IMG/VR virus record: IMGVR_UViG_3300028805_000074
Span: 1-64,000 of that record
Direction: 5' to 3' (one strand)
DNA length: 64,000 nucleotides
Origin: a virus
Taxonomy: Duplodnaviria; Caudoviricetes
The notes beneath the pieces are model-generated. The model was not told the DNA's origin and ran no database searches. It saw nothing but the letters and a program-made list of their open reading frames with translations. A program made the translations under genes and the position numbers. This document shows, piece after piece, positions 16,150 through 58,623 of the stretch; positions within the stretch are counted from its first letter, which is position 1, and every line of letters starts with the position of its first letter.

Positions 16150-16191
16150 ACACAAAAGAGCGCCCACTCTTTTGTGTCTATTTCCTTTTAT
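16136..16191. terminator. Bidirectional terminator, perfect 25-bp inverted repeat
   Basis: 16136-16160 is the exact reverse complement of 16167-16191; covers both convergent stop codons. Confidence 0.8.
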
Positions 16192-22100: not shown

Positions 22101-22826
22101 GCTCAGCTCCACGGTGCCAGCCCATCCGAGGGCCTGGGCGACGGCGGCAGGCAGCGTTCCGTCGGGTGCCATTGAGCCCGTCTCGCCTGTATAGGTCGCC
22201 ATCGGGGTGGCAGCCCACTCGCCGCGCTCCACGTAGATAATCCTGATGGGTCGCTGCGGCATCTTGTCGGGGTCGAGGTACCAGTCCTTGTTGTACTGGT
22301 CGGTGCCCAGTGTTCCCGTATCGAGGTCGACGGTGCGCTGTCCGCCCGTGTCGGCCAGCGATACGCTGCCGAGCCTGACCCACCAGTAGTCGCTGCGACC
22401 ATCGGCTGCTTGTCGCTCTGGAATGGCACCCCAGAGGTACTTGTTGCCGTCGGCACCCTCGGCCCTCATGGCACTGGTGGCACTGGTGTTCGGCGAGAGG
22501 ATGTAGGGATCCTGCCACTCGCCCGTTGCCTCGTCCTGCGTCTGCGGGGCGAACACCAGGTAGCCGTCGGTCGGGTCGGTCTTCTTCAGACGGGCGTAGA
22601 TGGTATATGGCACGCTGGCATCCGCCAGTCGGCGGTTGCGGCCCTTCAGCGTCCACTGCCTGATGTTGGCGTCGTCGTAGGCCAGGTCGGCTATCGGCTG
22701 GTAGCACACCTTGATCTTCGTGCCCTTGGCTATGTAGACGGCCAGGTCGTTGGCAGAATTGTTGGCATTCGGGGTAATCGCAATAGCTGACGGTGCTATG
22801 TAGTGGATAGGGGATGTACGGGCCAT
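16188..22826 (-). CDS. Large tail fibre / host-specificity protein (2212 aa)
   Basis: Thr/Gly-rich beta repeats, G.DG linkers, collagen-like (GDK)n, carbohydrate-binding-like W/Y modules, G.I.A.SG.IGNF motif before the tip. Confidence 0.85.
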   Translation of the reverse strand: MARTSPIHYIAPSAIAITPNANNSANDLAVYIAKGTKIKVCYQPIADLAYDDANIRQWTLKGRNRRLADASVPYTIYARLKKTDPTDGYLVFAPQTQDEATGEWQDPYILSPNTSATSAMRAEGADGNKYLWGAIPERQAADGRSDYWWVRLGSVSLADTGGQRTVDLDTGTLGTDQYNKDWYLDPDKMPQRPIRIIYVERGEWAATPMATYTGETGSMAPDGTLPAAVAQALGWAGTVELSFTSGQEINEPYHYQSLTRCRWLTHRLAEYNAGYTDAELYEELTTPSSGWEEENWVETSRVWRDGRLWECLVDGATDVPSDASLQWKLLLQGGEDAYNVELTKSSDAVVIDPSGNVVGGYRTVSKDSSGNEFYTYRFFTSVTVMKGGEYLHLCGALDDEEELGDGNFTVDAVGAGCDLKVEGSTCYITFIWHCNDGDASTDPYTSYNRTPEDYQLMRAMTEAVAHITLNIEGRTSVTKDYRLQLVHLPTDTITIESHNEIAALNWSTKKNAWTNRQDIVIPLTASSGGQPVRFQTVNGGTTPDIRLLNKPGWLSGTPGYSVAWADYDEDGDGRAEYTASQHMSVEITIPIANILRTWQEGGTAKEIPTTNLLKFNVTTVVDGVEYENVVPFTLNVTTDKAVYVLAPSVRQVTGTMIGGTWDPQTNTVSNARYSYVAAGEACSKVTCKLMCYDQNDNLTEITSASAIHDQLTFFINGAASTLEGFRTTGVENTPVGSTGHNLFDELSEIVFAIKLDGLDYESEGVPILRNGANLSIGDDGNWYIGGVNTEVFAKGTEVTGTFIYYTDPTTASTPPAYNPATDADRGRPVSPYLKTTCPASVEGKFIHYVSITVFSDSEQTYVYSYGTIGTGNTITVIHDRDYYASPTELTQAQLGTIPNASWSESTPANYSATNKYLYSRDTARYYKNGAEQTVTVGGIAYPKIVYTMLAYWGQDGSGVEFAYYRAADDSAANKPTADVLNQRHAGTAKNPVIPDWSGADGGWYDDNPGFTAQGQVMYQSVNKYSNGTWSGWGTPVIIDRYAQNTVRLDIDNEVDMVATDSTGRITAARTVETVVHLYDGSKEVDISNATLTVTGGPASAVATQTAAASGKGKKLSWAFKAGQTMNDVYNISIAYTYNGTAYTATFTVSASKGQAVWQLKPSQSSVIYSRKSDNTLTSANDKLTLDILKIDNNSTETKAATSANLAAWGLTVRYSTSSMPGSATAGSAWPTGNSITVASTTDNVYIAMFNASGVLLDRETIPVVCDGENGKNADVPMQAYQWNQSATTAPSPLPSGATLGNWKQSAPNRPGDGYFLWMTQTIKHTAADGTVTYDNWSAAVRISGDTGTAGEDGSDTEWIYTRNNNGTTPSAPTNPTDRTVDDYVPTGWTDNPQGVNYSNQYEYASFRTKPKGKNQTWGNFSAPVLWSHWGTNGMDGDGVEYVFMRTTKDVAPKISSTQTGYDADEFLPAITNQSAAGAESATCTDDPKGVSAAYPFEWVAKRTKAAPNAQTGKRSWNKFPTGDMELWANYSQKSDVPMQAYQWNQSATTAPSPLPSGATLGTWKQSAPNRPGDGYFLWMTQTIKHTAADGTVTYDNWSAAVRISGDTGTAGEDGSDTEWIYTRNNTGATPSAPTNPTDRTVDDYVPTGWTDNPQGVNYSNQYEYASFRTKPKGKNQTWGNFSAPVLWSHWGTNGMDGDGVEYVFMRTTKDVAPKISSTQTGYDKDEFLPAITNQSAAGAESETCTDDPKGVSAAYPFEWVAKRTKASPNAQTGKRSWNKFPTGDMELWAKYGKDGDKGDKGDKGDKGDKGNDGTDGYGVVLVLVRNIYSEEQWNAWAVIGQSDSYGKRDGDDDFTKCRVGDFFMTTGTATNSGKRHTAIWRCTSVTENNIIGTCVSHVSDGDSVTGDPGHVGRWYYYAGEWADGHTYTMQETQAPFVKRGDSFYMLDWGTDGRSTGSTTADPATNYNPVSGQGSQPWTLMQSTMQYYIAKAVFSDTAYLGSFFINGDWMISQYGGPSGKSYTDFDPEDFAAYVTNGTSYSGFIPNFAVDGRTGKTYQNDAYVRGNIIAESGRIGNFEISNGHLKSTDNMLTLEGTPPNDYALLNVAGHGKIEKFSVGWPSTGNTRSFCLCTGSSFTLPTSNEVLYGHVIFFKAINTDCTVYAPSGAKIMSAYDTALRDSFSVGTGSNIFVFMGPRYGASGGDEVWIRFDCSG
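17458..19008. repeat. Near-identical tandem duplication, 783-bp period (261 codons)
   Basis: 17458-18225 matches 18241-19008 with only scattered substitutions. Confidence 0.95.
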
Positions 22827-28020: not shown

Positions 28021-31000
28021 GTGACTGAAGAGAGCCTACAGATACTGAGGAACATTTCGCTCGTGGAAGTGATGCGGGCGAATGGATATGAGCCGGAGAA
28101 CCTGCCGAGGAGCGGCCGGGCGGTGTACCATTGTCCGTTGGGAGGGCACGCCGACCACAAGCCGTCGTTCAGCGTGGAGCAGAAGGCGGGCGACGGACAC
28201 GATGCGCCGGGCTGGGGATGCTTCGGGTGCGACAAGAAGGGCTACGGGGCCGTGGCGCTGCAGGCGGCGCTGATGGGCTACGACTGGAGCAACCTGACGC
28301 AGGAGCAGATGCAGAAGGTGTGCCAGCGGCTGGTGGACGAGCATGACGTGGAGGTGAAGGACGTGGCGCCGACGAGTCCGGAGGAACGGACGAAGGCGAT
28401 AGACCCGCAGGAGTGTGAGTTCACCGTGACGAAGTGGACGATATATCATCTGAGAGCGCTGGGCTTCACGGTGAAGAACGCGACCAAGGCAGGTGAGGAC
28501 GGCGAGCAGGTGGTGATGTATAAAGAGCCCGACCTCGGCGGCAAAACCGCCGAGCACAGTGAGGGCGACGGGAAGCCGGTGCCGCTGTACCGCTGCTCAA
28601 TCGACCGCGAGTTCTGGCGGGGCAGGGGAGAGGCCAAGACTGCCCAGGAGTGGGGCGAGACGATCGAGAGGGAGTTCCAGACGTACCCAGTCGATGTGTT
28701 CATCACCTCGCCTGTAAAAGCCAAGCAGGGCGGCAAGTGCTCGCTGGAGATTCACGACAGGCTGACGTACCCGATATTCGCGATGCCGTATGAATGGGGC
28801 ACGAAGAAATACGAGCCGAGAAGCAAGACGACGAAATGGGCGTGGTATAAGAAGGGCGACGTGGCCACACGGCTGTATGGCGACCATGTGGCGATGGCGG
28901 CGATGGAAGCCCTCGGCGGCAGAACCGCCGAGCACAGGACCGCAGCCGGAGAAGCGGCAGCCGCTCCGTGGTTTGCCGACGCGCTGAAGGACAGGCGGCA
29001 TCCGCTGGTGGTGACAGAGCGCGACAGCGACAAGAACCCCGTGAAGGCGAAGATGAAGCGGCTGGTGCTGTGCTCAGGGCCTCGCGATGCGATGCAGATG
29101 TGGGCGGCGACGGATGCTCATGTGCTGTGGCTGCACAACGAACTGGCGGGCATCAAGGACGGCGTGGTCGAGGAATGGCTGCGCGTGCTGCTCGTAAGGA
29201 TGGCTCAGGTGGCGGTGGATATATATGTATGCTACGACACCGACGCAACGGGGCAGGCCTGCAGCGCCAGCATCGCTCTGGAGAATGCCAGGGTGCATTG
29301 GGTCAGGTTGCCGAAGGAGATGGGGGCTGTTGACCTCGGCGGCAAAACCGCCGAGCACAGTAAGCCCTACAAGGACGTGACGGACTTCGTGACGCACTTC
29401 TCGCAGATACAGAAACTGTTTGCGCCGGACTTGCGGAAGGCGAACCCCAGCGAGGCGCTGATGCGGATGCTGAAAAATGCGCTGACGATGCAGTTCTGGA
29501 TTGACAAGCACACGTCGAAGAAGAACGACAAGGACGAGAAGGAGCACAACGTGCGCTACGTGCTGAGCGTGGCGAACCTGCTGCAGTTCCTCGACGCGAA
29601 GGGCATCCGCTGCCATCAGGACGAGCGCGGCCAGCGGGCGTTCTATCAGCTCTCGCACAATAATACATATAGATATCTCGACACCAGCCGCACGGGCAAC
29701 CAGCTGGAGTCAGTCTGCCGCACGTCGATGCTCGACTGGATAGACGCACACTTCGGCAACGACGCGGACTATGCCGACCAGGACGAGCGCAGGGACGACC
29801 CGTCGCAGTTCAAGGCGAACCTCGTGAACACCATCTTCACCGGCAAGGGACTCGACGCCAGGACGATGAACACCATGCCGCCGGCACCCATCAACGAGCA
29901 CTCGTGGGGCGAGGACTTCGACCACTTCTTCTTCCAAAACACCGCCGTCCGCGTGACGAAGGACGAGATCCGCGAGGTGCCCTACGACCGGCTGCCATGG
30001 GTGACCAACGAGGAAGCCATCATGCCGGGCGAGTTCCATGTGCAGCAGCAGCCGTGGCGCATCGTGGTCAACCCGAAGTACGAGGCCGAGCGGAAGCGCC
30101 ACGAGGAGATATCGAAGCAATGCACCACTCCCGCCATGCGTGCCGCCGAGAACCTGCGGTGGAAGCAGTGGGAGGAACTGTGGAAGTTCCAGCTCGTCAT
30201 GGACAAGCCCCTGGAAGAGATGCCGATGCACTTCCAGTTCGAGTACAACACGTGCCGCATCTTCTGGGAGAAGGAGTCGTTCGGCGAGAAGCTGACGGCC
30301 GTCGAGCGGCAGATGCAGGACATGCACTTCATCAACCACTGCCACGCCATCGGCTACAGCATCACCCGGCACCGGAGCCTGGCACGGCAGCTGACCGTCC
30401 ACATGACCGACTACAGCGTGACCGACGAGCAGAAGGCCAGCGGGCGCAACGGCAAGAGCATACACATCGACATGATGGCCACCGTCAGGCCCTCGTCGGC
30501 CAACATCGCGGGCAAGTCGATGAAGAACATCTCGATGGAGGTGCTGTTCGGCTACGTCATAGCCCACCTGCACACGCTGGTCTGCATGGACGAAATGCCC
30601 GACAACTTCAACGTCGAGGACCTGTACAACATCGGCACGAAACTGGTGTGCAAGACGCTCTACCACCAGCCCGTCACGCTGACCGGCGACGAGGTGCCCA
30701 AGGTGTTCATCACCTCGAACAAGCCCTTCGACCGCTCGGCGGGCTCCACCAAGGGGCGCATCTACCCCTGCTTCACCTCGGACTACTACCACGCCGCCAC
30801 CGACGACGGGCGCTGGCTCGACCATGCCCCCAAGGACGACTTCCTGGAGAAGTACGGCGTGGCGGAGGTGGCGCGTAACCTGCCGCCGCAGTTGCTGAAC
30901 GAGCTGCAGAACATGCTGCTGGCGATGGCGCAGTTCTACCTGCAGCACCCCAACGAGACCATCCTGCCGCCGACCGAGAGCCGTAGCCTGCGCCGCGAAC

Positions 31001-31536
31001 TCTACGCCATGACGAAGGACTCAGGGCTGACCGACTGGCTCATCACTTACTTCGAGGACACGCCCGACAACCCACACATCGGCCAGCCCATACCGCCGCA
31101 GGAGATGGCGATATCCTTATTGGACGCAGAGGGCGAGGGCGTCACCTGGGACACCATCGAGAAGGCGAAGAAACGCATCGCGAAGTACCTGAAGCCCTGT
31201 CTGAACCGCATGGGCATCGTGATGGATCCCGACGTGGTGCTGAACACGTCGTCGTACCGCCGTCGCGGCGGGCGCCAGACCCGTGCCTGGCTCACCGTGC
31301 TCGACCAGCAGGGCAAGCCCGTGGAGCGCATGGAGAAGAACAAGTACCGCCACGAGGTCAGCACCGGCGAGCGTGTGCCCCGCGAACTCTCCGCCCAGCA
31401 CACCTTCGTGCATTACTTCTATCGCAACCGTCCAGGCGGCGTGCCCACCAAGCCCTATACCGCCGGCAAGGAGTATGAGGAGGGGTATGTGCAGGCAGCA
31501 GCCGAGAAAGATCCGGAGGAAGGAGGTGAGTCATGA
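28021..31536 (+). CDS. DNA primase-helicase (CHC2 zinc finger + TOPRIM + P-loop ATPase)
   Basis: CPLGGH...CFGC; LCSGPRDA and CYDTDATG TOPRIM motifs; SGRNGKS Walker A, CMDE Walker B, ITSN; start uncertain (GTG 28021; frame open from 27907). Confidence 0.85.
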   Translation: MTEESLQILRNISLVEVMRANGYEPENLPRSGRAVYHCPLGGHADHKPSFSVEQKAGDGHDAPGWGCFGCDKKGYGAVALQAALMGYDWSNLTQEQMQKVCQRLVDEHDVEVKDVAPTSPEERTKAIDPQECEFTVTKWTIYHLRALGFTVKNATKAGEDGEQVVMYKEPDLGGKTAEHSEGDGKPVPLYRCSIDREFWRGRGEAKTAQEWGETIEREFQTYPVDVFITSPVKAKQGGKCSLEIHDRLTYPIFAMPYEWGTKKYEPRSKTTKWAWYKKGDVATRLYGDHVAMAAMEALGGRTAEHRTAAGEAAAAPWFADALKDRRHPLVVTERDSDKNPVKAKMKRLVLCSGPRDAMQMWAATDAHVLWLHNELAGIKDGVVEEWLRVLLVRMAQVAVDIYVCYDTDATGQACSASIALENARVHWVRLPKEMGAVDLGGKTAEHSKPYKDVTDFVTHFSQIQKLFAPDLRKANPSEALMRMLKNALTMQFWIDKHTSKKNDKDEKEHNVRYVLSVANLLQFLDAKGIRCHQDERGQRAFYQLSHNNTYRYLDTSRTGNQLESVCRTSMLDWIDAHFGNDADYADQDERRDDPSQFKANLVNTIFTGKGLDARTMNTMPPAPINEHSWGEDFDHFFFQNTAVRVTKDEIREVPYDRLPWVTNEEAIMPGEFHVQQQPWRIVVNPKYEAERKRHEEISKQCTTPAMRAAENLRWKQWEELWKFQLVMDKPLEEMPMHFQFEYNTCRIFWEKESFGEKLTAVERQMQDMHFINHCHAIGYSITRHRSLARQLTVHMTDYSVTDEQKASGRNGKSIHIDMMATVRPSSANIAGKSMKNISMEVLFGYVIAHLHTLVCMDEMPDNFNVEDLYNIGTKLVCKTLYHQPVTLTGDEVPKVFITSNKPFDRSAGSTKGRIYPCFTSDYYHAATDDGRWLDHAPKDDFLEKYGVAEVARNLPPQLLNELQNMLLAMAQFYLQHPNETILPPTESRSLRRELYAMTKDSGLTDWLITYFEDTPDNPHIGQPIPPQEMAISLLDAEGEGVTWDTIEKAKKRIAKYLKPCLNRMGIVMDPDVVLNTSSYRRRGGRQTRAWLTVLDQQGKPVERMEKNKYRHEVSTGERVPRELSAQHTFVHYFYRNRPGGVPTKPYTAGKEYEEGYVQAAAEKDPEEGGES
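28531..28560 (+). repeat. 30-bp in-frame palindromic element, copy 1 (DLGGKTAEHS)
   Basis: gacctcggcggcaaaaccgccgagcacagt. Confidence 0.9.
28909..28938 (+). repeat. 30-bp in-frame palindromic element, copy 2 (ALGGRTAEHR)
   Basis: 27/30 identical to copy 1. Confidence 0.85.
29332..29361 (+). repeat. 30-bp in-frame palindromic element, copy 3 (DLGGKTAEHS)
   Basis: 30/30 identical to copy 1. Confidence 0.9.
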
Positions 31537-32325: not shown

Positions 32326-32434
32326 AAATATGAACGAACAAGAAATTAAGGCGCAAGCCAACGAACAGAACAACGAGACAGTAACCACCACCCCGACGGA
32401 CGTGTGGTATTCATAAACGACAAAGAGCAACAGA

Positions 32435-33667
32435 ATGAAGAATCCATTCAATATCATCAAGCGCAAAGCCGACAAGATTCGCAAGAGCGAAGAAGCGATG
32501 AAGGCCGGTGTGGAGATGGCCGCCAGGGCGAAAGCTGAGGGCTGGAGCGACGAGCGGATGATGCAGGAGGTGATGAACTGGGCTGACCAGATGATTCGCT
32601 GTGAGATGGAAGAAGCCGTCGGCAAGGACATCGACCGAATGGTGGAAGCCATGCTGCAGAACGAACCCAACGCCAAGCGCTACGAAGAGAAACTGCGGCA
32701 GGAAGTTCGTCAGGAGTTCCTGAAGTATGCCATGACTGGCAAGGAACCCGACCTGGTGCAGGCCGCGAGCAGAGCCATTGGCGTGAACGAAGAAAAACCA
32801 ATCGCTGCCGACAACAAGCCGACGATGACCATCGAGGAGATGGAGCGCAAGATGGTCAGTGCGACATCGGTGGTGAAGCTGGTGTGCGGCGTTGGCAACA
32901 ATGCGGCGTGGCTGGTGGTGCTCGAAGCCTACGGACATGCCAAAGAGCATCCACGGTACAACCAGTCGGTGAAGGGCGGCAAGCGCGTGGGCTGGTTCTT
33001 CCGCCGCGTGATGAAACTCTACCACGAGTACGAGGACCATCTGGTGAACGCCAGGCAGAACCGCATGTTCCACCTGGCCGACATGGACGAGAAGACGCGC
33101 CGCAAGTACGGCGACATCAGCGACCGCGAGTACTACGACTTCTGGGCTGCCATCGGCGGGCCGGCCTACCACGAGACGCACCCACTGGTGACGAGCCTCT
33201 GGAACAAGTACCGCCTGTCGCTGCAGAACAACGGCGTAGAGCATGCCGACAAGGTGGCGTGGGTGATGACCGCTCAGGCGGCGCTGGAGCTGGCAGGCAC
33301 GATGTACGACATGGCCATCGACGAGTGCGAGACGGGCTACGGACTGCCGCGCAACCTGCTGGAGTACGTCTTCGGGCAGTTCTCGATGAAGGCAATCGCC
33401 AAGGAGTGGTACCGCGCCATGATGACGCTGGCCCCCGAGACCGAGCCCATCAAGCCGTCGGAACTGGACGAGAAGAACATCGACATCGGCATACGGCAGC
33501 TGATGGAGGCATGGATGGACCACGACCTGCTCTACCGCTCGACCGCCGACACCGTGGCCGACTACGACGAGGTGTTCTCGACCAAGGGCCACCAGAAGAA
33601 AGCCCTCCGCGAGATTGCCGAGGTGAGAGAAGAAACGCAACGAATGATTGATAACGACAATGACTAA
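32435..33667 (+). CDS. Hypothetical alpha-helical protein (410 aa)
   Basis: Long ORF with phage-typical codon usage. Confidence 0.8.
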   Translation: MKNPFNIIKRKADKIRKSEEAMKAGVEMAARAKAEGWSDERMMQEVMNWADQMIRCEMEEAVGKDIDRMVEAMLQNEPNAKRYEEKLRQEVRQEFLKYAMTGKEPDLVQAASRAIGVNEEKPIAADNKPTMTIEEMERKMVSATSVVKLVCGVGNNAAWLVVLEAYGHAKEHPRYNQSVKGGKRVGWFFRRVMKLYHEYEDHLVNARQNRMFHLADMDEKTRRKYGDISDREYYDFWAAIGGPAYHETHPLVTSLWNKYRLSLQNNGVEHADKVAWVMTAQAALELAGTMYDMAIDECETGYGLPRNLLEYVFGQFSMKAIAKEWYRAMMTLAPETEPIKPSELDEKNIDIGIRQLMEAWMDHDLLYRSTADTVADYDEVFSTKGHQKKALREIAEVREETQRMIDNDND

Positions 33668-33670
33668 GAT

Positions 33671-35437
33671 ATGACCTACGACGAGACAACGCTGTTTACG
33701 AAGTTCATGCAGGGAAAGGGTGTGATGAACAACTTCGAGTACCTGTACCGCTCGCACCGGTTCGACAAGCGCGACCTCGACACCTACCTCGACGAGGTGG
33801 CGGCAGAGGACGTGATACTGTCGGCCTTCGACTTCACGGGTGCTGGCAACACCATCTTCGGCTTCAAGTACTGGAAGGATATCGACCAGAAGTGGCAGGC
33901 GAAGCTGACGGAGTTCCGCAACACGGGCATCCTGACGGCCGACGAGGCACAGGTGTACTGCCCCCACTGCCAGCGGGTGCTGCCCAGGACGGCCTTTGCC
34001 ACGAAGTCGAATGGCGTGCTGCACAAGCACTGCCGTGAGTGCGAGGGCGGCAAATGGGACAAAGAGAAGAAGGAGCGCGAGAAGGCTGAGAAGGAGGCCG
34101 AGAAGCAGGCCAAGGCCATCAAGCAGCTGGAGAAGGAGATTGCCGAGAAGCAGGCGAAGCTGGAGCGGCTGTCGGCACAGGAGCCTGTAGCAGAGCCGAC
34201 GGGCAAGATCCTGACGAACAATCGTGCTGAGAGTGCCCGTCGTGAGATAGCCGAAGGACAGGCCAACCTCGACAAGACCACGAAGGTGTGCGGCCACTGC
34301 GGCAAGCGCAAGTTCCGCTCGGAGTTCTACAAGTCGGACTCCAGCGAGGACGGTCTGCAGGAGTATTGCAAGACCTGCCAGACGGAGCTGTTGGCCGCTG
34401 CTGAGGAGGCACAGCGGAAAGAGGGGGAACAGCGTCGGCTGGAGATTGAAATAGCCGAGTGCGAGGCCGAGGTACAGCGGATGGAGCAGGAGAAGAAGGC
34501 TCTCGATGAAGAAGTACGACGCAAGAAGGAAGCAGAGCGTCAGGCCGACGAGCAGCGCAAGGCTGTATCTGCAACCGCCGAGCCTACGACCGGCATGACC
34601 GTTGACACGACCGAAAATACGACCGAAATCCCGACAGCCACACGCTTGGGCGAGCACGACGTGACGATGCACTACAAGACGACGGAGAAGCGCATCACGC
34701 TCAATGCCGTGCTGTCGGACATCGTGCGACGGGCAGGGTTGACGAAGTGCTACATCTACGCCGACCGCAAGGGCTGTCAGTTCCTCGTGTTCAACAATGC
34801 CGAGGGCTCCAACGTCACCAAGGCCAACAGCCGTACCAGCGACCTGCTGCAGGTGTGCTCGTCCAGCATCTGCCGACAGATTGCCGAGCGATTCGAGCTG
34901 AGAATTGGCGACAACTACTACCTGCATGTTACGAAGAACCTGGCACACACGGCTGACATCGTGAACGTCGAGGTGAAGCAGGTGCGGACCCGAGAGGAGT
35001 ATGCCGTCATTGTGGCACAGCGCGAGGCAGCCGTGAAGAGCGGCATCACGCCCGACATCGACGAGACCGACGATCCTATGGAAGAGGCCCCTACCCCATC
35101 CACCGACACCAACGACATGCCGCTGATAGAGTTTGCGGACATCGACGATAACCATACAGGCGACGGGCAGACCCCGACCACGGGTGAGAGTGGCGGCAGT
35201 TCTGCCCCCACGCCTGAACCCAAGCAGAAGGCCAAGGCTGGCAACATGAAACCTGCCAGCCTGAAACCTGAAACCACCGGCATCCCCCTCTCTGGCCGCA
35301 AGCCGCAGGATATCCTCCAGCAGCTCATCGACCGGGGCCACCTGCAGGAGCGCGACATCGCCGCCTTCCTCTTCCAGAAAGGCTGGGAACTGCACGAGCC
35401 GGTCGTGGTCACCAAGCACAAGAAATTCTCACTGTAA
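33671..35437 (+). CDS. Zinc-finger and coiled-coil hypothetical protein (588 aa)
   Basis: Two CxxC...CxxC fingers (CPHC..CREC, CGHC..CKTC) separated by coiled coils. Confidence 0.8.
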   Translation: MTYDETTLFTKFMQGKGVMNNFEYLYRSHRFDKRDLDTYLDEVAAEDVILSAFDFTGAGNTIFGFKYWKDIDQKWQAKLTEFRNTGILTADEAQVYCPHCQRVLPRTAFATKSNGVLHKHCRECEGGKWDKEKKEREKAEKEAEKQAKAIKQLEKEIAEKQAKLERLSAQEPVAEPTGKILTNNRAESARREIAEGQANLDKTTKVCGHCGKRKFRSEFYKSDSSEDGLQEYCKTCQTELLAAAEEAQRKEGEQRRLEIEIAECEAEVQRMEQEKKALDEEVRRKKEAERQADEQRKAVSATAEPTTGMTVDTTENTTEIPTATRLGEHDVTMHYKTTEKRITLNAVLSDIVRRAGLTKCYIYADRKGCQFLVFNNAEGSNVTKANSRTSDLLQVCSSSICRQIAERFELRIGDNYYLHVTKNLAHTADIVNVEVKQVRTREEYAVIVAQREAAVKSGITPDIDETDDPMEEAPTPSTDTNDMPLIEFADIDDNHTGDGQTPTTGESGGSSAPTPEPKQKAKAGNMKPASLKPETTGIPLSGRKPQDILQQLIDRGHLQERDIAAFLFQKGWELHEPVVVTKHKKFSL

Positions 35438-47674: not shown

Positions 47675-48652
47675 ATGAAGATACTATCAAGACCAAAAGG
47701 AAATGCCGAGGAGTACGGACGCTGGGCGGTGAACGCCTACCTCGGATGCCCAAACCGCTGCAAATACTGCTACCTGCAGTCAGGCCCCGGCGCGAAGAAC
47801 CTGGGCGGCTCGGTGGCGAAACTGAAGACGCACGTCATCAACGAGGAGCACGCCTACCACCTGGCGATGGCCGAAATCATCGAGAACCGCGAGGCCATCA
47901 TCCGCGACGGCGGACTGTTCTTCACGTTCACCAGCGACCCGTGCATCAAGGATACGCGCAATCTGAATTTCACTATCGCCCACGACGCCCTGATGATGCG
48001 CATACCAGTAACGATGCTCACCAAAGACGCTACATTTCTCAACCTCGACCCGTTCGACGAGGAAATAATCGGCCTTGACAAAGAGGAAGACTGGCGGCGT
48101 AGCATTCCGTTCTATCATTCAGGCAGCGGACATCTCAGCTTCATCGACAATCCGCACTTCACAACCGACACGGCCATCATCGCCTTTGGCTTCACGCTTA
48201 CAGGTCACGATGAACTGGAGCCTAACGCCTCGCCTAATGAGGAGCGTATCAACGCCATGCAACGCCTGAACGAAAGAAACTTCAAGACATGGGCCTCGAT
48301 TGAGCCGGTCATCGAATTTCGCAGAAGCTACCGCATGATTCAGCAGGCGCTCGACGCAGGCTGCCGGCACTTCAAGATTGGCCTGATGACCAGCCGCACG
48401 AAGGTGTGCCGCAAGGGCTTCACGCTGGGCGGACAGGCCTTCGAGCCCTACGACCCCGCCCGCTGCCTGGCCTTCGTGCAGGACGTGATGCAGCTGACCC
48501 GCGACCGCGCCACCGTCTACTGGAAGCAGTCGTTCCGCGAGTTCATCGGCGGCACCCCGGCGCACCGCCTCTTTACCGACGACGAGCTACACAATATCTT
48601 CGACGACTACCCCAACGCCGTCGGCAAGGACTGGACGATGTTCAATATATAA
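47675..48652 (+). CDS. Radical SAM protein (SplB-like phage family)
   Basis: Y.GCPNRCKYCY (CxxxCxxC), F..TSDP, MLTK, EPNAS...RI.A, TWASIEP. Confidence 0.85.
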   Translation: MKILSRPKGNAEEYGRWAVNAYLGCPNRCKYCYLQSGPGAKNLGGSVAKLKTHVINEEHAYHLAMAEIIENREAIIRDGGLFFTFTSDPCIKDTRNLNFTIAHDALMMRIPVTMLTKDATFLNLDPFDEEIIGLDKEEDWRRSIPFYHSGSGHLSFIDNPHFTTDTAIIAFGFTLTGHDELEPNASPNEERINAMQRLNERNFKTWASIEPVIEFRRSYRMIQQALDAGCRHFKIGLMTSRTKVCRKGFTLGGQAFEPYDPARCLAFVQDVMQLTRDRATVYWKQSFREFIGGTPAHRLFTDDELHNIFDDYPNAVGKDWTMFNI

Positions 48653-49841: not shown

Positions 49842-51446
49842 ATGGCAAGAAACGAAGATATCAACCTATTATACATCGACCTGTTCTGTGGGGCGGGCGG
49901 CACGTCAACGGGCGTGGAGTATGCCCGGCACGACGGGATGCCGTGCGCCAAGGTGGTGGCCTGCGTGAATCACGACAAGAATGCCATTCTCTCGCATCAG
50001 GCCAACCATCCGCACACGCTCCACTTCACCGAGGACATCCGCACGCTGGAACTGTCGCCGATGGTGAGCCACCTGCAGAAGATGAAGGCCGAATACCCCA
50101 AGGCCCGCGTGGTGTTATGGGCGAGTTTGGAATGTACGAACTTCAGCAAGGCGAAGGGCGGGCAGCCGCGCGATGCCGACAGCCGGACGCTGGCCGAGCA
50201 CCTGTTCCGCTACATCGAGGCGCTGCAGCCCGATTACATACAAATAGAGAACGTGGAGGAGTTTATGTGCTGGGGCGAACTGGACGAGCACGGCAAGCCC
50301 ATCAGCAAGCGCAAGGGGATTGACTACATGCGCTGGGTGATGCACGTCTGCGACTACGGCTACGACTTCGGGTGGCGCATCCTGAACGCTGCCGACTTCG
50401 GGGCCTACACCTCGCGCAAGCGGTACTTCGGGCAGTTCGCCAGGAAGGGACTGCCGATAGCCTTCCCACAGCAGACCCACGCCAAAAACGGCGACGAGGG
50501 CGGCATGTTCAAGATGTACAAGAAGTGGCGGCCCGTGCGCGAAGTGCTCGACCTCGACGACGACGGCGAGAGCATCTTCACTCGCAAGAAACCGCTGTGC
50601 GAGAAGACATTGGAGCGCATCTATGCCGGACTGGTGAAATTCGTGGCTGGCGGTAAGAAGCAGCACGAGCAGTTTATGATGCGATACAACACGGTGAGGG
50701 CGCAGGACACGGTGAAGTCGATTGAAGAGCCGTGCGGCGTGGTGACTACGGAGAACCGCTTTGCCAAGGTGAAGTGCCAGTTCCTCTCGAAGCAGTTCAG
50801 CGGCGACCCGTCGGGCAAGAACATCGACCTGGAGCAGCCCGCCGGCACCGTAACTTGTAAGGATCATCACGCCTTCGTTACCGCCTATTACGGCAACGGC
50901 TTCAACACAAGCATCGACGACCCGGCTCCCACCGTCACCACTAAGGACAGGATTTCGCTGGTGACGACGAAGTTCTTAGACAACCAGTACGGCAAGAGCA
51001 AGCCCACGTCCATCGACGCCCCGTCGCCTACCCTTCTGAACAATCCCAAGCAGAAAATCGTGTCGGCGCAGTATCTGATGAACCCGCAGTATCAGAGCGA
51101 CGGCGGCAGCATCGACAAGCCCTGCTTCACGCTCATTGCCCGCATGGACAAGATGCCGCCCTATCTGATTACCACCAAGGAGGGCGTGGTGGGCATCGCC
51201 ATCTACGACGACGACAGCCCCTGGACGCGACGGGTCAAGGAGTTCATGGCCGCCTACGGCATCGTGGACATCTGTATGCGTATGCTCAACATCGGCGAAC
51301 TGAAGCGCATCATGGGCTTCCCGACGGACTACACCCTCATAGGCACCCAGGCCGAGCAGAAGAAGTTCATCGGCAACGCCGTCGAGGTGAACATGAGCCG
51401 CGTGCTCTGCGAGGCCCTGAGCGAGCGACTGAGACAGATAGCGTAA
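49842..51446 (+). CDS. DNA (cytosine-5)-methyltransferase
   Basis: DLFCGAGG (I), WASLECTNFS (IV), IENVEEF (VI), TSRKR (VIII), RML...EL..IMGFP (IX), IGNAV (X). Confidence 0.92.
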   Translation: MARNEDINLLYIDLFCGAGGTSTGVEYARHDGMPCAKVVACVNHDKNAILSHQANHPHTLHFTEDIRTLELSPMVSHLQKMKAEYPKARVVLWASLECTNFSKAKGGQPRDADSRTLAEHLFRYIEALQPDYIQIENVEEFMCWGELDEHGKPISKRKGIDYMRWVMHVCDYGYDFGWRILNAADFGAYTSRKRYFGQFARKGLPIAFPQQTHAKNGDEGGMFKMYKKWRPVREVLDLDDDGESIFTRKKPLCEKTLERIYAGLVKFVAGGKKQHEQFMMRYNTVRAQDTVKSIEEPCGVVTTENRFAKVKCQFLSKQFSGDPSGKNIDLEQPAGTVTCKDHHAFVTAYYGNGFNTSIDDPAPTVTTKDRISLVTTKFLDNQYGKSKPTSIDAPSPTLLNNPKQKIVSAQYLMNPQYQSDGGSIDKPCFTLIARMDKMPPYLITTKEGVVGIAIYDDDSPWTRRVKEFMAAYGIVDICMRMLNIGELKRIMGFPTDYTLIGTQAEQKKFIGNAVEVNMSRVLCEALSERLRQIA

Positions 51447-56623: not shown

Positions 56624-57031
56624 ATGGCAGACCACGGAACAATATCTTTCGAGAACTCGAAGCGGATGCGGGAGCGTCGGCTGAAGGTGGACGGGCTGGT
56701 GGAACAGGCGGCCTGTGAACGGCAGGCACTCGTCGGCGCACAGCACAACCTGATAAGAGAGATAGTGAAGCAGGAGCGCAGCCACCTGAACAAGCAGGTG
56801 TATGACCTGGCCGAGCGGCAGGGCGTGAGCATCTATGACATCTGCCTGCAGTACATGCCAGAGTATGGCGAGCCGAAGTTTGACTTCGGTGGCGACGGCG
56901 TGAACATGACGCAGGAGGTAAGGCTCGTGCCCATGCCGCTGGAACTGGAGAAGGGCGGCGGCTACTGGAAGGACAAGTATTACCGTCTGAAAGAACACCT
57001 GCAGGAACTAATAGATAACAAGGAGGACTGA
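56624..57031 (+). CDS. Hypothetical protein
   Basis: ATG 56624 after GGAGG. Confidence 0.6.
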   Translation: MADHGTISFENSKRMRERRLKVDGLVEQAACERQALVGAQHNLIREIVKQERSHLNKQVYDLAERQGVSIYDICLQYMPEYGEPKFDFGGDGVNMTQEVRLVPMPLELEKGGGYWKDKYYRLKEHLQELIDNKED

Positions 57032-57035
57032 ACGT

Positions 57036-57893
57036 ATGAAATGGAATATCAACAGCTGCGACGGGATATATAACTCGTTCGACGTGCATTTCACGTCGGT
57101 GTGCGACAACCGGTGCCGTCATTGTATCGACGCAAAGTATGACGGCAAGGGAATTAAGAAACCGGATGCTCATGCCATCGCTAAGACTATCATCGAGCAT
57201 CAGGAGGGTTTCGAGGACGTGCTGTTCCTCGGCGGTGAGCCGTGCCTGTATCTGTCGGAACTCTGCGACTGTATCCGTATGATTAAGCAGGAAACTCGGC
57301 TAAAATGCTACGTCACGACCTCGGTGCCGCAGACTTGCTTCTACCAGTATCAGAAGTTTCTGGAGATGTCGGAACTGGCCGACGGCGTGAACCTTTCCGT
57401 GCAACACTACCGCGAGGACGTGGCCGACAAGATACGCTGCACCACGTCGTGCTACGACCGCCAGAAGTTCTACTCTGAGTTGCCGCATAAGGAGCGGTTT
57501 CGTATTCACTTGAACATCGTTCGGCCATGGCTCTGCGAGCGTGACGAGATACTGGCCTGTCTGCAGCATTACGACAGCATGGGATTCAACGTTATCAAGC
57601 TATCGGAACTGCAGCGTGCCACCGACAGTTACGCATCATTTGAACAGATTATGGGCATCAAACTCAAATCACCATTTGCTCATGGCTGTCAGACGTGGTT
57701 CGATATGCGTCAGTTCCTGCCAGACTATAAAGGCCGGCTGCTGCTGAAACGCTCCTGCTTCCTGAATGAGGAGACATGCCGCGCCAGTCTGATGGACGGC
57801 ATCAAGGTGTTCCGCAAGTGCCTGGTCCGACCACGGCTGCAGCACTATTCCGTGGTATATGAAGACGGCTCACTCAGCAATGGGTGGGTATAG
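57036..57893 (+). CDS. Radical SAM enzyme (candidate peptide maturase)
   Basis: CDNRCRHC (CxxxCxxC), LFLGGEP, YVTTS, VNLSVQH; extra C-terminal cysteines. Confidence 0.85.
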   Translation: MKWNINSCDGIYNSFDVHFTSVCDNRCRHCIDAKYDGKGIKKPDAHAIAKTIIEHQEGFEDVLFLGGEPCLYLSELCDCIRMIKQETRLKCYVTTSVPQTCFYQYQKFLEMSELADGVNLSVQHYREDVADKIRCTTSCYDRQKFYSELPHKERFRIHLNIVRPWLCERDEILACLQHYDSMGFNVIKLSELQRATDSYASFEQIMGIKLKSPFAHGCQTWFDMRQFLPDYKGRLLLKRSCFLNEETCRASLMDGIKVFRKCLVRPRLQHYSVVYEDGSLSNGWV

Positions 57894-57920
57894 TATAAAT
57901 CCTTTAATACATTAACAACT

Positions 57921-58106
57921 ATGTGGACAAGATTTCTTAGAAACATGATGGCGCAACACGCGCTGAAGATGAGCCACTGCTCAACGGGCGGCGGCTATGG
58001 CGGGGCATCACATTGCTCCAGTGGAGAAACATTTTATCGTAAAGTAGGCGCAGGGCACTGTGTCACCTATGAGCCAGTCAACCGAGGCAATGGGCACTGC
58101 GGGTAA
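57921..58106 (+). CDS. 61-aa peptide with four (S/G)HC motifs (candidate RiPP precursor)
   Basis: MWTRFLRNMMAQHALKM-SHC-STGGGYGGA-SHC-SSGETFYRKVGA-GHC-VTYEPVNRGN-GHC-G; A-rich leader; 27 nt after the radical SAM stop. Confidence 0.65.
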   Translation: MWTRFLRNMMAQHALKMSHCSTGGGYGGASHCSSGETFYRKVGAGHCVTYEPVNRGNGHCG

Positions 58107-58146
58107 AGAGAAATATTTGTTATTAACAATTTAAACATTTACGATT

Positions 58147-58623
58147 ATGAGATCAAGAACAGCTATTTGGTTTGAGTGCAAGGTCCGCTATGAGAAGGTC
58201 ATGGAGAACGGCTTGCAGAAGAAAGTGACGGAACAGTATGTGGTGGACGCCCTCTCGTTCAGCGAGGCGGAGCAGCGCATCATCGAGGAAATGTCGAGCT
58301 ACATCAGCGGCGAGTTTGAGGTGACGGACGTGAAGAAGGCGACGTACAAAGAGGTGTTTTTCAGCGATTGCGAGACGGAGGACCGCTACTTCAAGGCGAA
58401 GGTGCAGTTCATCACCATCGACGAGAAGACGGAGAAGGAGAAGCGCTCGAACGTGTACTATCTCGTGCAGGCCGCCACGCTCGACGGCGCCGTCAAGAAC
58501 ATCAACGAGGTGATGGGCGGCACGATGATCGACTACGAGAAGTCCACCGTCAGCGAGACGAAGATCCTCGATGTGTTCGAGTACCAGAAGGCGGACAAGA
58601 AGGAGGCTGGCGATGGCGAGTAG
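58147..58623 (+). CDS. DUF4494-like protein
   Basis: WFECKVRYEKVMENG.QKKVTE.YVVDALSF.EAE.RI.EEM and ETKILDVF. Confidence 0.85.
   Translation: MRSRTAIWFECKVRYEKVMENGLQKKVTEQYVVDALSFSEAEQRIIEEMSSYISGEFEVTDVKKATYKEVFFSDCETEDRYFKAKVQFITIDEKTEKEKRSNVYYLVQAATLDGAVKNINEVMGGTMIDYEKSTVSETKILDVFEYQKADKKEAGDGE

Follow-up and report, generated by a model that had tools for sequence, protein, structure and literature searches.

The closest described counterparts of the locus analysed here are the sacti- and ranthipeptide systems SkfB/SkfA, AlbA/SboA, CteB/CteA ("SCIFF") and PapB/PapA, which share with it an adjacent short precursor, invariant cysteines and a leader-core layout, and in which, as in the phage enzyme, extra conserved cysteines could hold an auxiliary cluster with a site open to a substrate thiolate. 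Most radical SAM enzymes of RiPP pathways use an RRE, a PqqD-like domain that binds the leader. Small enzymes that recognize their peptides without a functional RRE are represented by the epimerases YydG/EpeE and by SuiB, whose leader is bound outside its RRE; however, their substrates are not Cys-repeat peptides and there is no family-level sequence match, so that the likeness to the phage enzyme is architectural only. The viperins and MoaA act on nucleotides, and in MoaA three cysteines hold an auxiliary cluster that leaves an iron site open, a parallel to three invariant extra cysteines of the phage enzyme; in contrast to the phage system, neither has a dedicated partner peptide. RiPPs are regarded as products of cells, and to our knowledge phage-borne RiPP pathways are hardly known.

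Compared with the sacti- and ranthipeptide enzymes, which have roughly 380–450 aa, the phage enzyme is only 285 aa long and matches neither SPASM nor RRE models; its peptide leader is predicted to bind a C-terminal helix, and the peptide core, a series of small-residue-X-Cys units, lacks any conserved acceptor residue like Asp or Glu. The phage system is, moreover, almost exclusively viral, and its chemistry is unproven. PapB can link a cysteine to the C-terminal residue (PMC12373016). That link recalls the conserved near-C-terminal cysteine of the phage peptide. No prior description of the phage system was found in curated families or in the searchable literature, subscription journals being outside the scope of the search, and the gene pair very probably represents an undescribed, mainly viral system that makes a chemically modified peptide, the modification itself being inferred.

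Organization of the gene pair

The pair lies in the 122,574-bp (122-kb) genome of a gut virus, within the window, that is, the whole stretch of 64,000 nucleotides that was analysed; all features described below are on the plus strand. That the record is viral is inferred from its IMG/VR/CheckV label and from the viral setting of the relatives; some 30 of its largest ORFs were compared with PHROGs and Pfam, and none matched terminase, portal or capsid. The radical SAM enzyme gene (57036–57893, with the stop codon of the ORF call ending at 57893) encodes 285 aa and is followed by an A/T-rich spacer of 27 nt without a Shine-Dalgarno match (57894–57920) and by a precursor-like peptide gene encoding 61 aa plus stop (57921–58106). 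The sequence-only reading had described just this arrangement, a 285-aa CxxxCxxC/GGEP gene with a 61-aa ORF 27 nt downstream, and the coordinates bear it out. In low-GC relatives, the peptide start is located 0–8 nt past the enzyme gene, and the Shine-Dalgarno sequence is built from the last K-G-W codons of the enzyme. Promoter and terminator scans returned nothing above shuffles. The 61-aa peptide has no match in Pfam; in a six-frame search of the entire 122,574-bp genome for stop-to-stop frames with at least two [GSANT]-H-C units, the peptide frame was the only one recovered.

The enzyme

The enzyme is a member of the radical SAM superfamily by its cluster motif, its Radical_SAM (PF04055) score of 37.5 bits against a cut-off of 29.5 (3.4e-9; Fer4_12 is also matched), its barrel fold and its GGEP motif. 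The ligands of the SAM-binding [4Fe-4S] cluster, C23-x3-C27-x2-C30 (57102–57125), do not vary among 129 close and 52 distant relatives, and the SAM-binding motif G66-G-E-P69 (57231–57242) likewise occupies invariant alignment columns. The residue next to it, C70, is invariant in the H-C clade and lost in the enzymes of Lak megaphages.

Three extra cysteines, C8 (57057–57059), C218 (57687–57689) and C241 (57756–57758), are also invariant in the alignments of the 129 close and 52 distant relatives. C8 is invariant superfamily-wide, being kept even in the Lak enzymes, and C218 is found just ahead of a predicted beta-hairpin (residues 219–222 and 234–238); for both residues the role of auxiliary-cluster ligand is inferred. 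Position 244 is a cysteine in 93% of relatives and an asparagine in the window enzyme, which has C248 (57777–57779) instead. A shift of the ligand from C244 to C248 was considered and appears unconvincing, as C248 is present in only 4 of the 9 sequences without C244 and the compensation is partial.

The AF2 model of the enzyme (pLDDT 86.8, pTM 0.85) yielded radical SAM barrel fold matches to MoaA (Z 12.9 over 240 residues), SuiB (11.9), PqqE (11.6) and CteB (11.6), with PFL-AE in the group at Z 11.5–12.9, ChlB in the group at Z 11–12, SkfB at 9.8 and EpeE at 7.7. The peptide-modifying SuiB, PqqE, CteB and ChlB (Z 11–12) are among the nearest folds, tied with MoaA. The sulfur-inserting enzymes LipA and BioB are among the matches as well (Z 8.4–10.9), without standing out from many other radical SAM enzymes. 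The succession of C218, the hairpin 219–222/234–238, C241 and helix 252–263 in the model may or may not correspond to a twitch domain, the shortened C-terminal domain (hairpin and helix, one auxiliary cluster) of SkfB, BtrN and MoaA; MoaA aligns over residues 8–285, and neither cysteine distances nor metal data are available for this layout.

None of the SPASM, twitch or RRE models in Pfam and NCBIfam matched the enzyme. Maturases of the SPASM type (sacti- and ranthipeptide synthases, PqqE, anSME) carry a C-terminal seven-Cys motif for two auxiliary clusters; this type was rejected, with no SPASM model among the matches and only the three invariant extra cysteines available, and so was an RRE-dependent maturase: the first barrel strand starts at residue 13, which leaves no room for an N-terminal RRE domain. 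The absence of an RRE and of a full SPASM domain, inferred in the sequence-only reading, is thereby upheld. Among PDB entries the best sequence-profile matches are viperins (E about 1e-8), and viperins and MoaA are the nearest sequence matches overall, both confined to the barrel core (residues 13–194). The family models place the enzyme in neither: the viperin models NF038283 and TIGR04278, with cut-offs of 180 and 450, gave only 29.2 and 18.9 bits, respectively, PADLOC pVip gave 32.5 bits over the core only, and the MoaA model TIGR02666 gave 22.1 bits against 284. Glycyl-radical activating enzymes (PflA, NrdG) were excluded by the scores of TIGR02493 (15.6 against 231.75) and TIGR02495 (22.1 against 131), and no glycyl-radical enzyme partner is conserved near the cassettes. 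The His-Xaa-Ser system (HxsB/HxsC with HxsA) was excluded by those of TIGR03977 (19.4 against 267.9) and NF038332 (25.9 against 500), and the repeats of the phage peptide are H-C, not H-x-S. ESM Atlas and BFVD returned only generic "radical SAM" names. As far as such model comparisons can tell, the enzyme fits none of the known maturase families. It is among the smallest candidate peptide-modifying radical SAM proteins.

The peptide

The peptide begins with a leader (residues 1–17, 57921–57971) in the form of an amphipathic helix, M-W-T-R-F-L-R-N and so on, whose pattern M-[YFW]-T-[KR]-x-[LV]-[RK] is conserved in H-C-clade loci; in 64 of 80 unique peptides the first histidine comes 17 residues after the aromatic one. 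Core module 1 (residues 18–33, 57972–58019) consists, in the alignment, of S-H-C, an 8-residue Gly-rich spacer, a second S-H-C and a serine. This module alone makes up the entire core of the canonical precursors of 27–41 aa, and its residues H19, C20, H31 and C32 are invariant in the peptide alignment. A linker that is conserved in the subclade (residues 34–44, 58020–58052) leads to core module 2 (residues 45–61, 58053–58103), made of G-H-C, a 9-residue spacer, a further G-H-C and a glycine, so that the last cysteine is penultimate. All four cysteines had been described as preceded by histidine in SHC or GHC units, with a tyrosine in each spacer and a 17-aa leader-like segment in front, and each of these statements holds (H19-C20, H31-C32, H46-C47 and H59-C60, preceded by S18, S30, G45 and G58; Y26, Y39 and Y50; residues 1–17).

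The window peptide is a double-core precursor that marks a subclade of ruminant-gut phages. Linker residues 37–42 resemble the leader docking motif in a weak match of six residues; that core module 2 may come from a second, fused precursor by duplication is a guess resting on this six-residue resemblance.

Among the 80 unique peptides, 75 have exactly one residue after the last cysteine, and this cysteine is 0–1 residues from the C-terminus when distant loci are included. The spacer between units is hypervariable (2–14 residues, 39% Gly) and the number of units ranges from 2 to 8 across loci; the units themselves are invariant. One locus (L012) carries two different tandem precursor genes, and another (L112) a clean repeat expansion. 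The general layout of a RiPP locus is satisfied, with a precursor gene beside a modifying enzyme, a conserved leader and a core with invariant target residues.

Conservation of the pairing

The close set comprised 117 loci (42 viral/GTDB and 75 metagenomic) with an enzyme 47–89% identical and enough downstream DNA. A short ORF with the amphipathic leader of fixed length and 2–5 (G/S)-H-C units was found in 115 of them. The sequence-only reading had proposed to check whether a short HC-repeat ORF is conserved directly downstream of the homologues, and a Cys peptide indeed accompanies the enzyme in all 42 viral/GTDB loci, from -6 to +93 nt from the enzyme stop, and in all 75 metagenome loci; H-C units are present in 40 of the 42, the exceptions (L043 and L044) having 2-Cys peptides without histidine. 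Among distant loci (28–48% identity), 29 of 34 encode a Cys-repeat peptide of the G-H-C, G-C-H or G-G-C type. No match was obtained by blastn against GenBank phages, and tblastn retrieved only Lak megaphages (33–35% identity), in which a precursor of 153–166 aa ending in two G-G-C units is encoded 25–28 nt downstream of the enzyme. In total, the enzyme and a Cys-repeat peptide occur together in about 150 other phage loci, so that nearly every part of the enzyme superfamily keeps such a partner. The cassettes are found in phages from 20-kb contigs up to 550-kb Lak megaphages, from rumen, human gut, sediments and digesters.

Apart from the enzyme and the peptide, no neighbour is conserved in 44 loci, which agrees with the earlier statement that protease and exporter are lacking. 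The GC content of the loci spans 21 to 57%, in keeping with a wide host range, and the peptide is still conserved at the amino-acid level. Codon comparisons place it under purifying selection, with dN/dS of 0.07–0.15 for the peptide and 0.08–0.13 for the enzyme. Three enzyme clades track the peptide type, with 16 label changes needed compared with a mean of 49.4 after shuffling, so that a change of enzyme clade goes with a change of peptide type. The emphasis on the HC dyad was only partly sustained: H-C units prevail in the close loci, but they are not universal. Because the sister clades use G-C-H or G-G-C units, cysteine and its Gly-rich context are constant and histidine is clade-specific.

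It had also been stated that the pair would be refuted if homologues lacked an adjacent HC peptide or carried it as a metal-binding C-terminal tail. The former is contradicted by the near-universal adjacent peptide, whereas a form of the latter does occur, though rarely: a Cys/His C-terminal tail is part of the enzyme in P0125 and P0258, 2 of the 15 longest database representatives inspected. Scans of viral contigs found no match to either protein. In several distant relatives, the enzyme terminates in a short tail that has one cysteine only.

A few contig joints in four gut runs skip from 57031 to 58121–58147, with sides of 21–41 letters at 80% likeness, and would represent relatives without a cassette; they were not counted, given the short sides and a downstream DUF4494 gene that is common to many organisms.

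Predicted docking of the leader

Co-folding, which the sequence-only reading had proposed, favours binding of the peptide to the enzyme, with a score of 0.82 as against 0.00 for the best of three controls; 58 of 80 solved complexes attain that mark, as do 2 of 110 mismatched pairs. At least 17% of contacts are common to the runs, and the pLDDT of the partner is 38 or more. Confident contacts are made between leader residues 2, 3, 6, 7, 9, 10 and 13 and enzyme residues 242–243, 248–250, 254–255, 258–259 and 261–262. The corresponding surface, a loop and the C-terminal helix 252–263 (residues 242–262, 57759–57821), is predicted to be the leader-docking site, and F242, A250, D254 and K257 of the enzyme are invariant in the alignment. 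Binding of the leader to the C-terminal helix of the enzyme is, however, supported by the model only. The peptide core has a pLDDT of about 40 in the co-fold and makes no confident contact near SAM.

Alternative explanations

If only the enzyme were real, the 61-aa ORF would be a chance open frame. The peptide has no family match, as such a frame would, but this explanation is effectively refuted by its conservation downstream of about 150 relatives at 21–57% GC, by dN/dS of 0.07–0.15, by its being the sole such frame in the genome and by a co-fold that is specific relative to controls. A more serious, though still unlikely, alternative makes the peptide a permanent small subunit, anchored by its leader, whose cysteines and histidines ligate a metal or Fe-S cluster or relay redox equivalents or hydrogen atoms, while the substrate of the holo-enzyme is another molecule, for instance a nucleotide as with viperin and MoaA. 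Such a role is suggested by the outside matches, of which viperins (E about 1e-8) and MoaA (Z 12.9) are the best, by the Cys/His segment forming the enzyme's own tail in P0125 and P0258, by the single-Cys short tails of several distant relatives, by the lack of a conserved protease or exporter nearby and, by inference, by the Cys2His2 ligand set that two H-C dyads would make. A subunit would, however, be expected to have a fixed geometry, yet the spacers vary from 2 to 14 residues and the units from 2 to 8; histidine is dispensable in whole clades, and at one locus two different peptide genes stand in tandem. The viperin and MoaA matches cover the common barrel core only and fall far short of what the families require (29 bits where 180 are needed, and 22 where 284 are). 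Precursor fusions, for their part, occur in established RiPP systems too, the borosin OphMA being one example. The rare fused forms nevertheless keep a tail or subunit role alive, and the reading of the tail as a substrate in cis is unrefuted.

It is improbable, more so than the subunit role, that the peptide stays unmodified or is sacrificed as a carrier, similar to a metallochaperone, which supplies the enzyme with iron, sulfur or another metal, or that it is a metal-binding peptide of the phage, with the true substrate elsewhere. Metallochaperones such as UreE, SlyD and HypB carry His- and Cys-rich tails, and variable repeat number and spacing in a Gly-rich context are reminiscent of these; the presence of LipA and BioB among the fold matches points the same way, but these two match no better than many radical SAM enzymes do. 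The strict leader length and a last cysteine 0–1 residues from the C-terminus would be unexpected in a loose tail, and the co-variation of enzyme clade and unit type argues for specific recognition.

Proposed function

We consider it probable that the locus is a self-contained two-gene phage cassette in which a compact radical SAM enzyme is paired with a ribosomally made substrate, that is, a RiPP-like maturase-precursor pair; modification, chemistry and expression are inferred. The same compact pair had been proposed from the letters alone, and the adjacency in homologues and the controlled co-fold lend it support. Several observations count against a maturase: evidence of a modified peptide is lacking, the co-fold places the leader alone, SPASM, twitch and RRE models are unmatched and the nearest relatives by sequence are nucleotide enzymes, C244 is replaced in the window enzyme, and two database relatives carry the Cys/His segment as a tail.

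As a maturase-precursor pair, the system might operate as follows. The amphipathic N-terminal helix of the peptide would dock on enzyme residues 242–262, replacing the RRE (so far in the model only), and the flexible Gly/Ser-rich core would presumably be fed into the barrel. A 5'-deoxyadenosyl radical, together with an auxiliary Fe-S cluster inferred to be held by C8, C218 and C241 with one iron site open, may then modify each small-residue-X-Cys unit, of which the window precursor would supply four, as His-Cys units, in two core modules. The chemistry would most likely be a link from cysteine sulfur to carbon (thioether) or another Cys-centred oxidation, which is pure inference. Neither a protease nor an exporter travels with the two genes, from which we infer that the product probably retains its leader and works within the infected cell or once lysis has occurred; the absence of both genes is unusual for a secreted RiPP and is a further point against the maturase-precursor reading.

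A more specific proposal, which we put forward only tentatively and regard as possible rather than probable, is a mainly viral RiPP class without RRE or SPASM, in which the leader is read by the C-terminal helix and an undescribed Cys-centred reaction gives a cross-linked or metal-binding product used inside the infected cell. The reaction in such a class could be a carbon-sulfur link from Cys to Gly or from Cys to His, or a link via the C-terminal residue, and examples of intracellular use would be the inhibition of a host enzyme or of a defence system. Phages of very different kinds from anaerobic habitats have retained the cassette, which is under strong selection and needs no other conserved gene, so it must be useful during infection. 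RRE-free binding of the leader, if true, would be a new mode of recognition and would offer a handy minimal scaffold for peptide engineering, and at only about 1.1 kb the cassette is amenable to direct synthesis and testing.

The cores of the G-G-C clade, Gly/Ser-rich with repeated Gly-Cys, also resemble the core of McbA, the precursor of microcin B17, a likeness that is a lead only. McbA is matured by a YcaO-type cyclodehydratase and a dehydrogenase, whereas the phage enzyme is a radical SAM protein; a thiazole/oxazole-modified microcin of this type was rejected, with no YcaO conserved and only the enzyme and the peptide kept in the 44 loci.

A radical SAM enzyme gene paired with a cysteine-repeat peptide gene

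The cassette consists of a 285-aa radical SAM enzyme ORF (57036–57893, +), which carries C23-x3-C27-x2-C30 and G66-G-E-P69, and a 61-aa precursor-like peptide ORF (57921–58106, +), separated from the enzyme stop by an A/T-rich spacer of 27 nt. Each of the four cysteines of the peptide (20, 32, 47 and 60) is preceded by His and each His by Ser or Gly; the spacers are Gly/Ser-rich, with a Tyr in each, and an N-terminal segment of 17 residues lies ahead of them. The sequence-only reading had described the enzyme motifs, the 27-nt gap, the His-Cys pattern, the Tyr-containing spacers and the leader in these terms, and re-reading of the ORFs found every detail correct. The enzyme matches Pfam Radical_SAM at 37.5 bits, above the cut-off of 29.5, as well as Fer4_12; the 61-aa peptide has no Pfam match, and all NCBIfam, PHROG and PADLOC matches to the cassette are far under the family thresholds and cover the barrel core only. 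The parent record, of which the window represents the first 64 kb, is 122,574 bp long with 56.5% GC, is rated complete by CheckV and derives from a sheep gut metagenome.

A DUF4494 gene (58147–58623, +; Pfam 5.5e-59, phrog_19572) lies directly 3' of the cassette. Contigs from four gut metagenome runs cover it at a depth of 150–700, as opposed to ~3–15 for the cassette, so this gene must also be carried by many further organisms or phages. A small number of contigs, found in two runs, connect the end of the upstream gene (57031) to the DUF4494 start (58121–58147), omitting 1089–1114 bases. These would imply cassette-less relatives, but the hint is weak because the flanking matches span just 21–41 letters at 80% likeness.

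Conservation of the pair

We identified 960 enzyme relatives of about 284 aa in the database and took the DNA around enzyme relatives from three collections. The proposal that a short HC-repeat ORF is conserved downstream of the homologues was borne out in 40 of 42 viral and GTDB loci, where an ORF with at least two H-C units (Gly or Ser followed by His-Cys) starts between -6 and +93 nt from the enzyme stop, and in all 75 metagenome loci, out of 80, that have enough downstream DNA to judge. It did not hold for the His, which is absent from the 2-Cys peptides of the remaining two viral/GTDB loci (47–49% identity) and is changed in distant clades. The loci range from 21 to 57% GC, and the peptide is nevertheless conserved as a protein; between the window and three relatives, dN/dS is alike for the peptide (0.07–0.15) and the enzyme (0.08–0.13). 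Coincidence can be virtually ruled out as the origin of the 61-aa ORF, given this low dN/dS, the conserved downstream ORF, and the fact that, among the six frames of the whole 122,574-bp genome, the peptide frame alone contains at least two [GSANT]-H-C units. No conserved gene other than the peptide gene was found beside the enzyme in 44 loci, so the unit comprises these two genes and nothing else, in agreement with the earlier observation that no protease or exporter accompanies the pair.

In low-GC relatives (loci L006–L038 and others), the enzyme gene ends in conserved K-G-W codons; these 9 bases double as a Shine-Dalgarno site for the peptide, which begins 0–8 nt further on. This arrangement is lost in the subclade of the window, which has in its place an A/T-rich spacer of 24–32 nt without such a site. 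The A/T-rich spacer, together with the adjoining DUF4494 gene, suggests by inference a Bacteroidota host.

Anatomy of the peptide

Among 80 unique H-C-type peptides, most have two units and 25–41 aa. The leader is amphipathic and starts M-[YFW]-T-[KR]-x-[LV]-[RK], with the first His 17 positions beyond the aromatic residue in 64 of the 80 (range 16–20). Gly precedes His in 165/188 units; the stretch from a Cys to the next His, including the Gly/Ser ahead of the His, covers 3–15 residues (39% Gly, 16% Ser), and 75 of the 80 peptides end one residue after their last Cys. The window peptide represents a canonical precursor (1–33) extended by a linker (34–44) and a second two-unit module (45–61). 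In the enzyme tree, the window falls inside a subclade of 17 rows (SH-aLRT 99), all from ruminant or other gut samples, of which 16 have 3–5 units, so the double core is a lineage trait. Independent expansions to four units are seen at loci L041/L042 and L151, a 13-residue unit closing with G-H-C is cleanly repeated in tandem at L112, and at L012 two different precursor genes follow the enzyme in tandem. The precursor at L104 has a 93-residue tail beyond the last Cys.

Distant relatives

When 1.84 billion representatives were searched with a profile of the enzyme, no more than 86 clusters scored E 1e-30 or better and 502 scored 1e-3 or better, so the family is a small island in sequence space. 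At 29 of 34 distant viral loci (28–48% identity) a partner peptide is still encoded, with the unit altered: reversed G-C-H units characterise one clade, H-C and C-H units occur together in a mixed group, and a third clade has 90–110-aa precursors with a ~50-aa helical leader and 5–8 G-G-C-G units, in which the last Cys is the final residue. The third clade includes the enzymes of Lak megaphages of Prevotella (GenBank; 33–35% identical), whose partner ORFs, unannotated in the records (L129:2383–2841 in Lak-A1, L130:2371–2868 in Lak-B1), encode 153–166 aa, start 25–28 nt downstream of the enzyme and carry two G-G-C units in the last 17–19 residues. Peptide type tracks enzyme clade, the tree requiring 16 changes of label where shuffling gives a mean of 49.4, a contrast inflated by relatedness alone. 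The constants of the superfamily are a Cys in a Gly-rich setting, present in at least two copies, with the last Cys at or beside the C-terminus, and His is a clade-specific companion of the Cys. No Pfam or NCBIfam model matched any precursor type.

Enzyme structure and predicted binding

The AF2 model of the enzyme is confident (pLDDT 86.8, pTM 0.85), and fold searches with it point to a radical SAM barrel of generic type, extended at the C-terminus. The matches to MoaA (Z 12.9), DesII (12.0), SuiB (11.9), PqqE (11.6), CteB (11.6), PFL-AE (11.5) and ChlB (11.0) are effectively tied; viperins and MoaA come first in Foldseek and the PDB sequence profile, with weak E-values and over the core only. 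The enzyme has no RRE, since residue 13 is already the start of the first barrel strand, and it gives no SPASM match, which upholds the claim that an obvious RRE and a full SPASM domain are absent. Besides the SAM-cluster cysteines, C8, C218 and C241 are invariant across 129 close relatives, 52 distant ones and the Lak enzymes. The modelled order of C218, a predicted beta-hairpin, C241 and a helix resembles the arrangement in twitch-type domains that hold an auxiliary cluster. The auxiliary cluster of MoaA and the first auxiliary cluster of CteB are three-Cys clusters with one open iron, and by analogy such a cluster would be in keeping with the binding of a substrate thiolate by the enzyme. 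Position 244 is Cys in 93% of relatives and Asn in the window enzyme; C248 substitutes in some only.

Co-folding of enzyme and peptide, as proposed from the sequence, was run with the enzyme and peptide alignments, two clusters and SAM, and scored 0.82 versus 0.00 for the best of 3 controls, with the runs agreeing in at least 17% of contacts and a partner pLDDT of at least 38. The mark was attained for 58 of 80 solved complexes and, among mismatched pairs, for 2 of 110, counts that are only a rough guide because our own alignments were supplied and ligands included. In the confident interface, one face of the leader helix (residues 2, 3, 6, 7, 9, 10 and 13) contacts enzyme residues 242–243, 248–250, 254–255, 258–259 and 261–262, a surface containing the invariant F242, A250 and D254. 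The peptide core was not placed in the co-fold. The prediction supports docking of the leader and is silent on chemistry.

Nature of the enzyme–peptide pair

The fixed leader, variable spacers, invariant repeated units, copy-number expansions, tandem precursors and enzyme–peptide co-variation lead us to regard the two genes as probably a RiPP-like maturase–precursor pair. The main rival, in which the enzyme acts on another substrate with the peptide bound as its subunit or tail, seems to us rather unlikely. It draws on the viperin/MoaA likeness of the enzyme, on the absence of any accompanying protease or exporter and on P0125 and P0258, distant relatives of 346 and 361 aa that carry a two-unit Cys/His segment behind a helical linker at the enzyme's own C-terminus; the varying geometry and copy number of the peptide speak against it. 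In the absence of DNA context, these two proteins could be either natural fusions or frameshifted calls. An HC peptide carried as a C-terminal metal-binding tail was among the conditions set to refute the sequence-only reading; a Cys/His tail is seen in these two database forms, without refuting a cis-substrate reading, and the close loci have a separate ORF (40/42 and 75/75). A carrier or chaperone role for the peptide is less plausible still.

If the pair is indeed RiPP-like, our best guess at the chemistry is a thioether from Cys to carbon, by analogy with sacti- and ranthipeptide synthases, the radical SAM enzymes known to modify precursors marked by Cys. PapB is able to take the C-terminal residue as acceptor (PMC12373016). 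Apart from Gly, and His in some clades, the peptides offer no conserved acceptor residue, which leaves other Cys-centred reactions possible. No description of this enzyme–peptide pair was found in curated families or the searchable literature.

Other features of the window and genome

No terminase, portal or capsid gene was recognised among ~30 of the genome's largest ORFs, and the genome has no tRNA. Very large ORFs without a Pfam or PHROG match encode 2211 aa (16188–22826, -), 1154 aa (28072–31536, +) and 913 aa (32411–35155, -). A 325-aa ORF (47675–48649, +) has a weak Radical_SAM match below threshold (Pfam E 9.5e-5; 23.1 bits, cut-off 29.5), a faint spore-photoproduct-lyase match and no PADLOC match, and may be a second radical SAM enzyme of the same phage. 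Elsewhere, the complete genome encodes a 1704-aa DarB-like antirestriction helicase-methylase (74594–79711, -), another anti-restriction protein (89934–91004, -) and a reverse-transcriptase-like protein (88205–89821, -), and the window a DNA methyltransferase (49842–51446, +).
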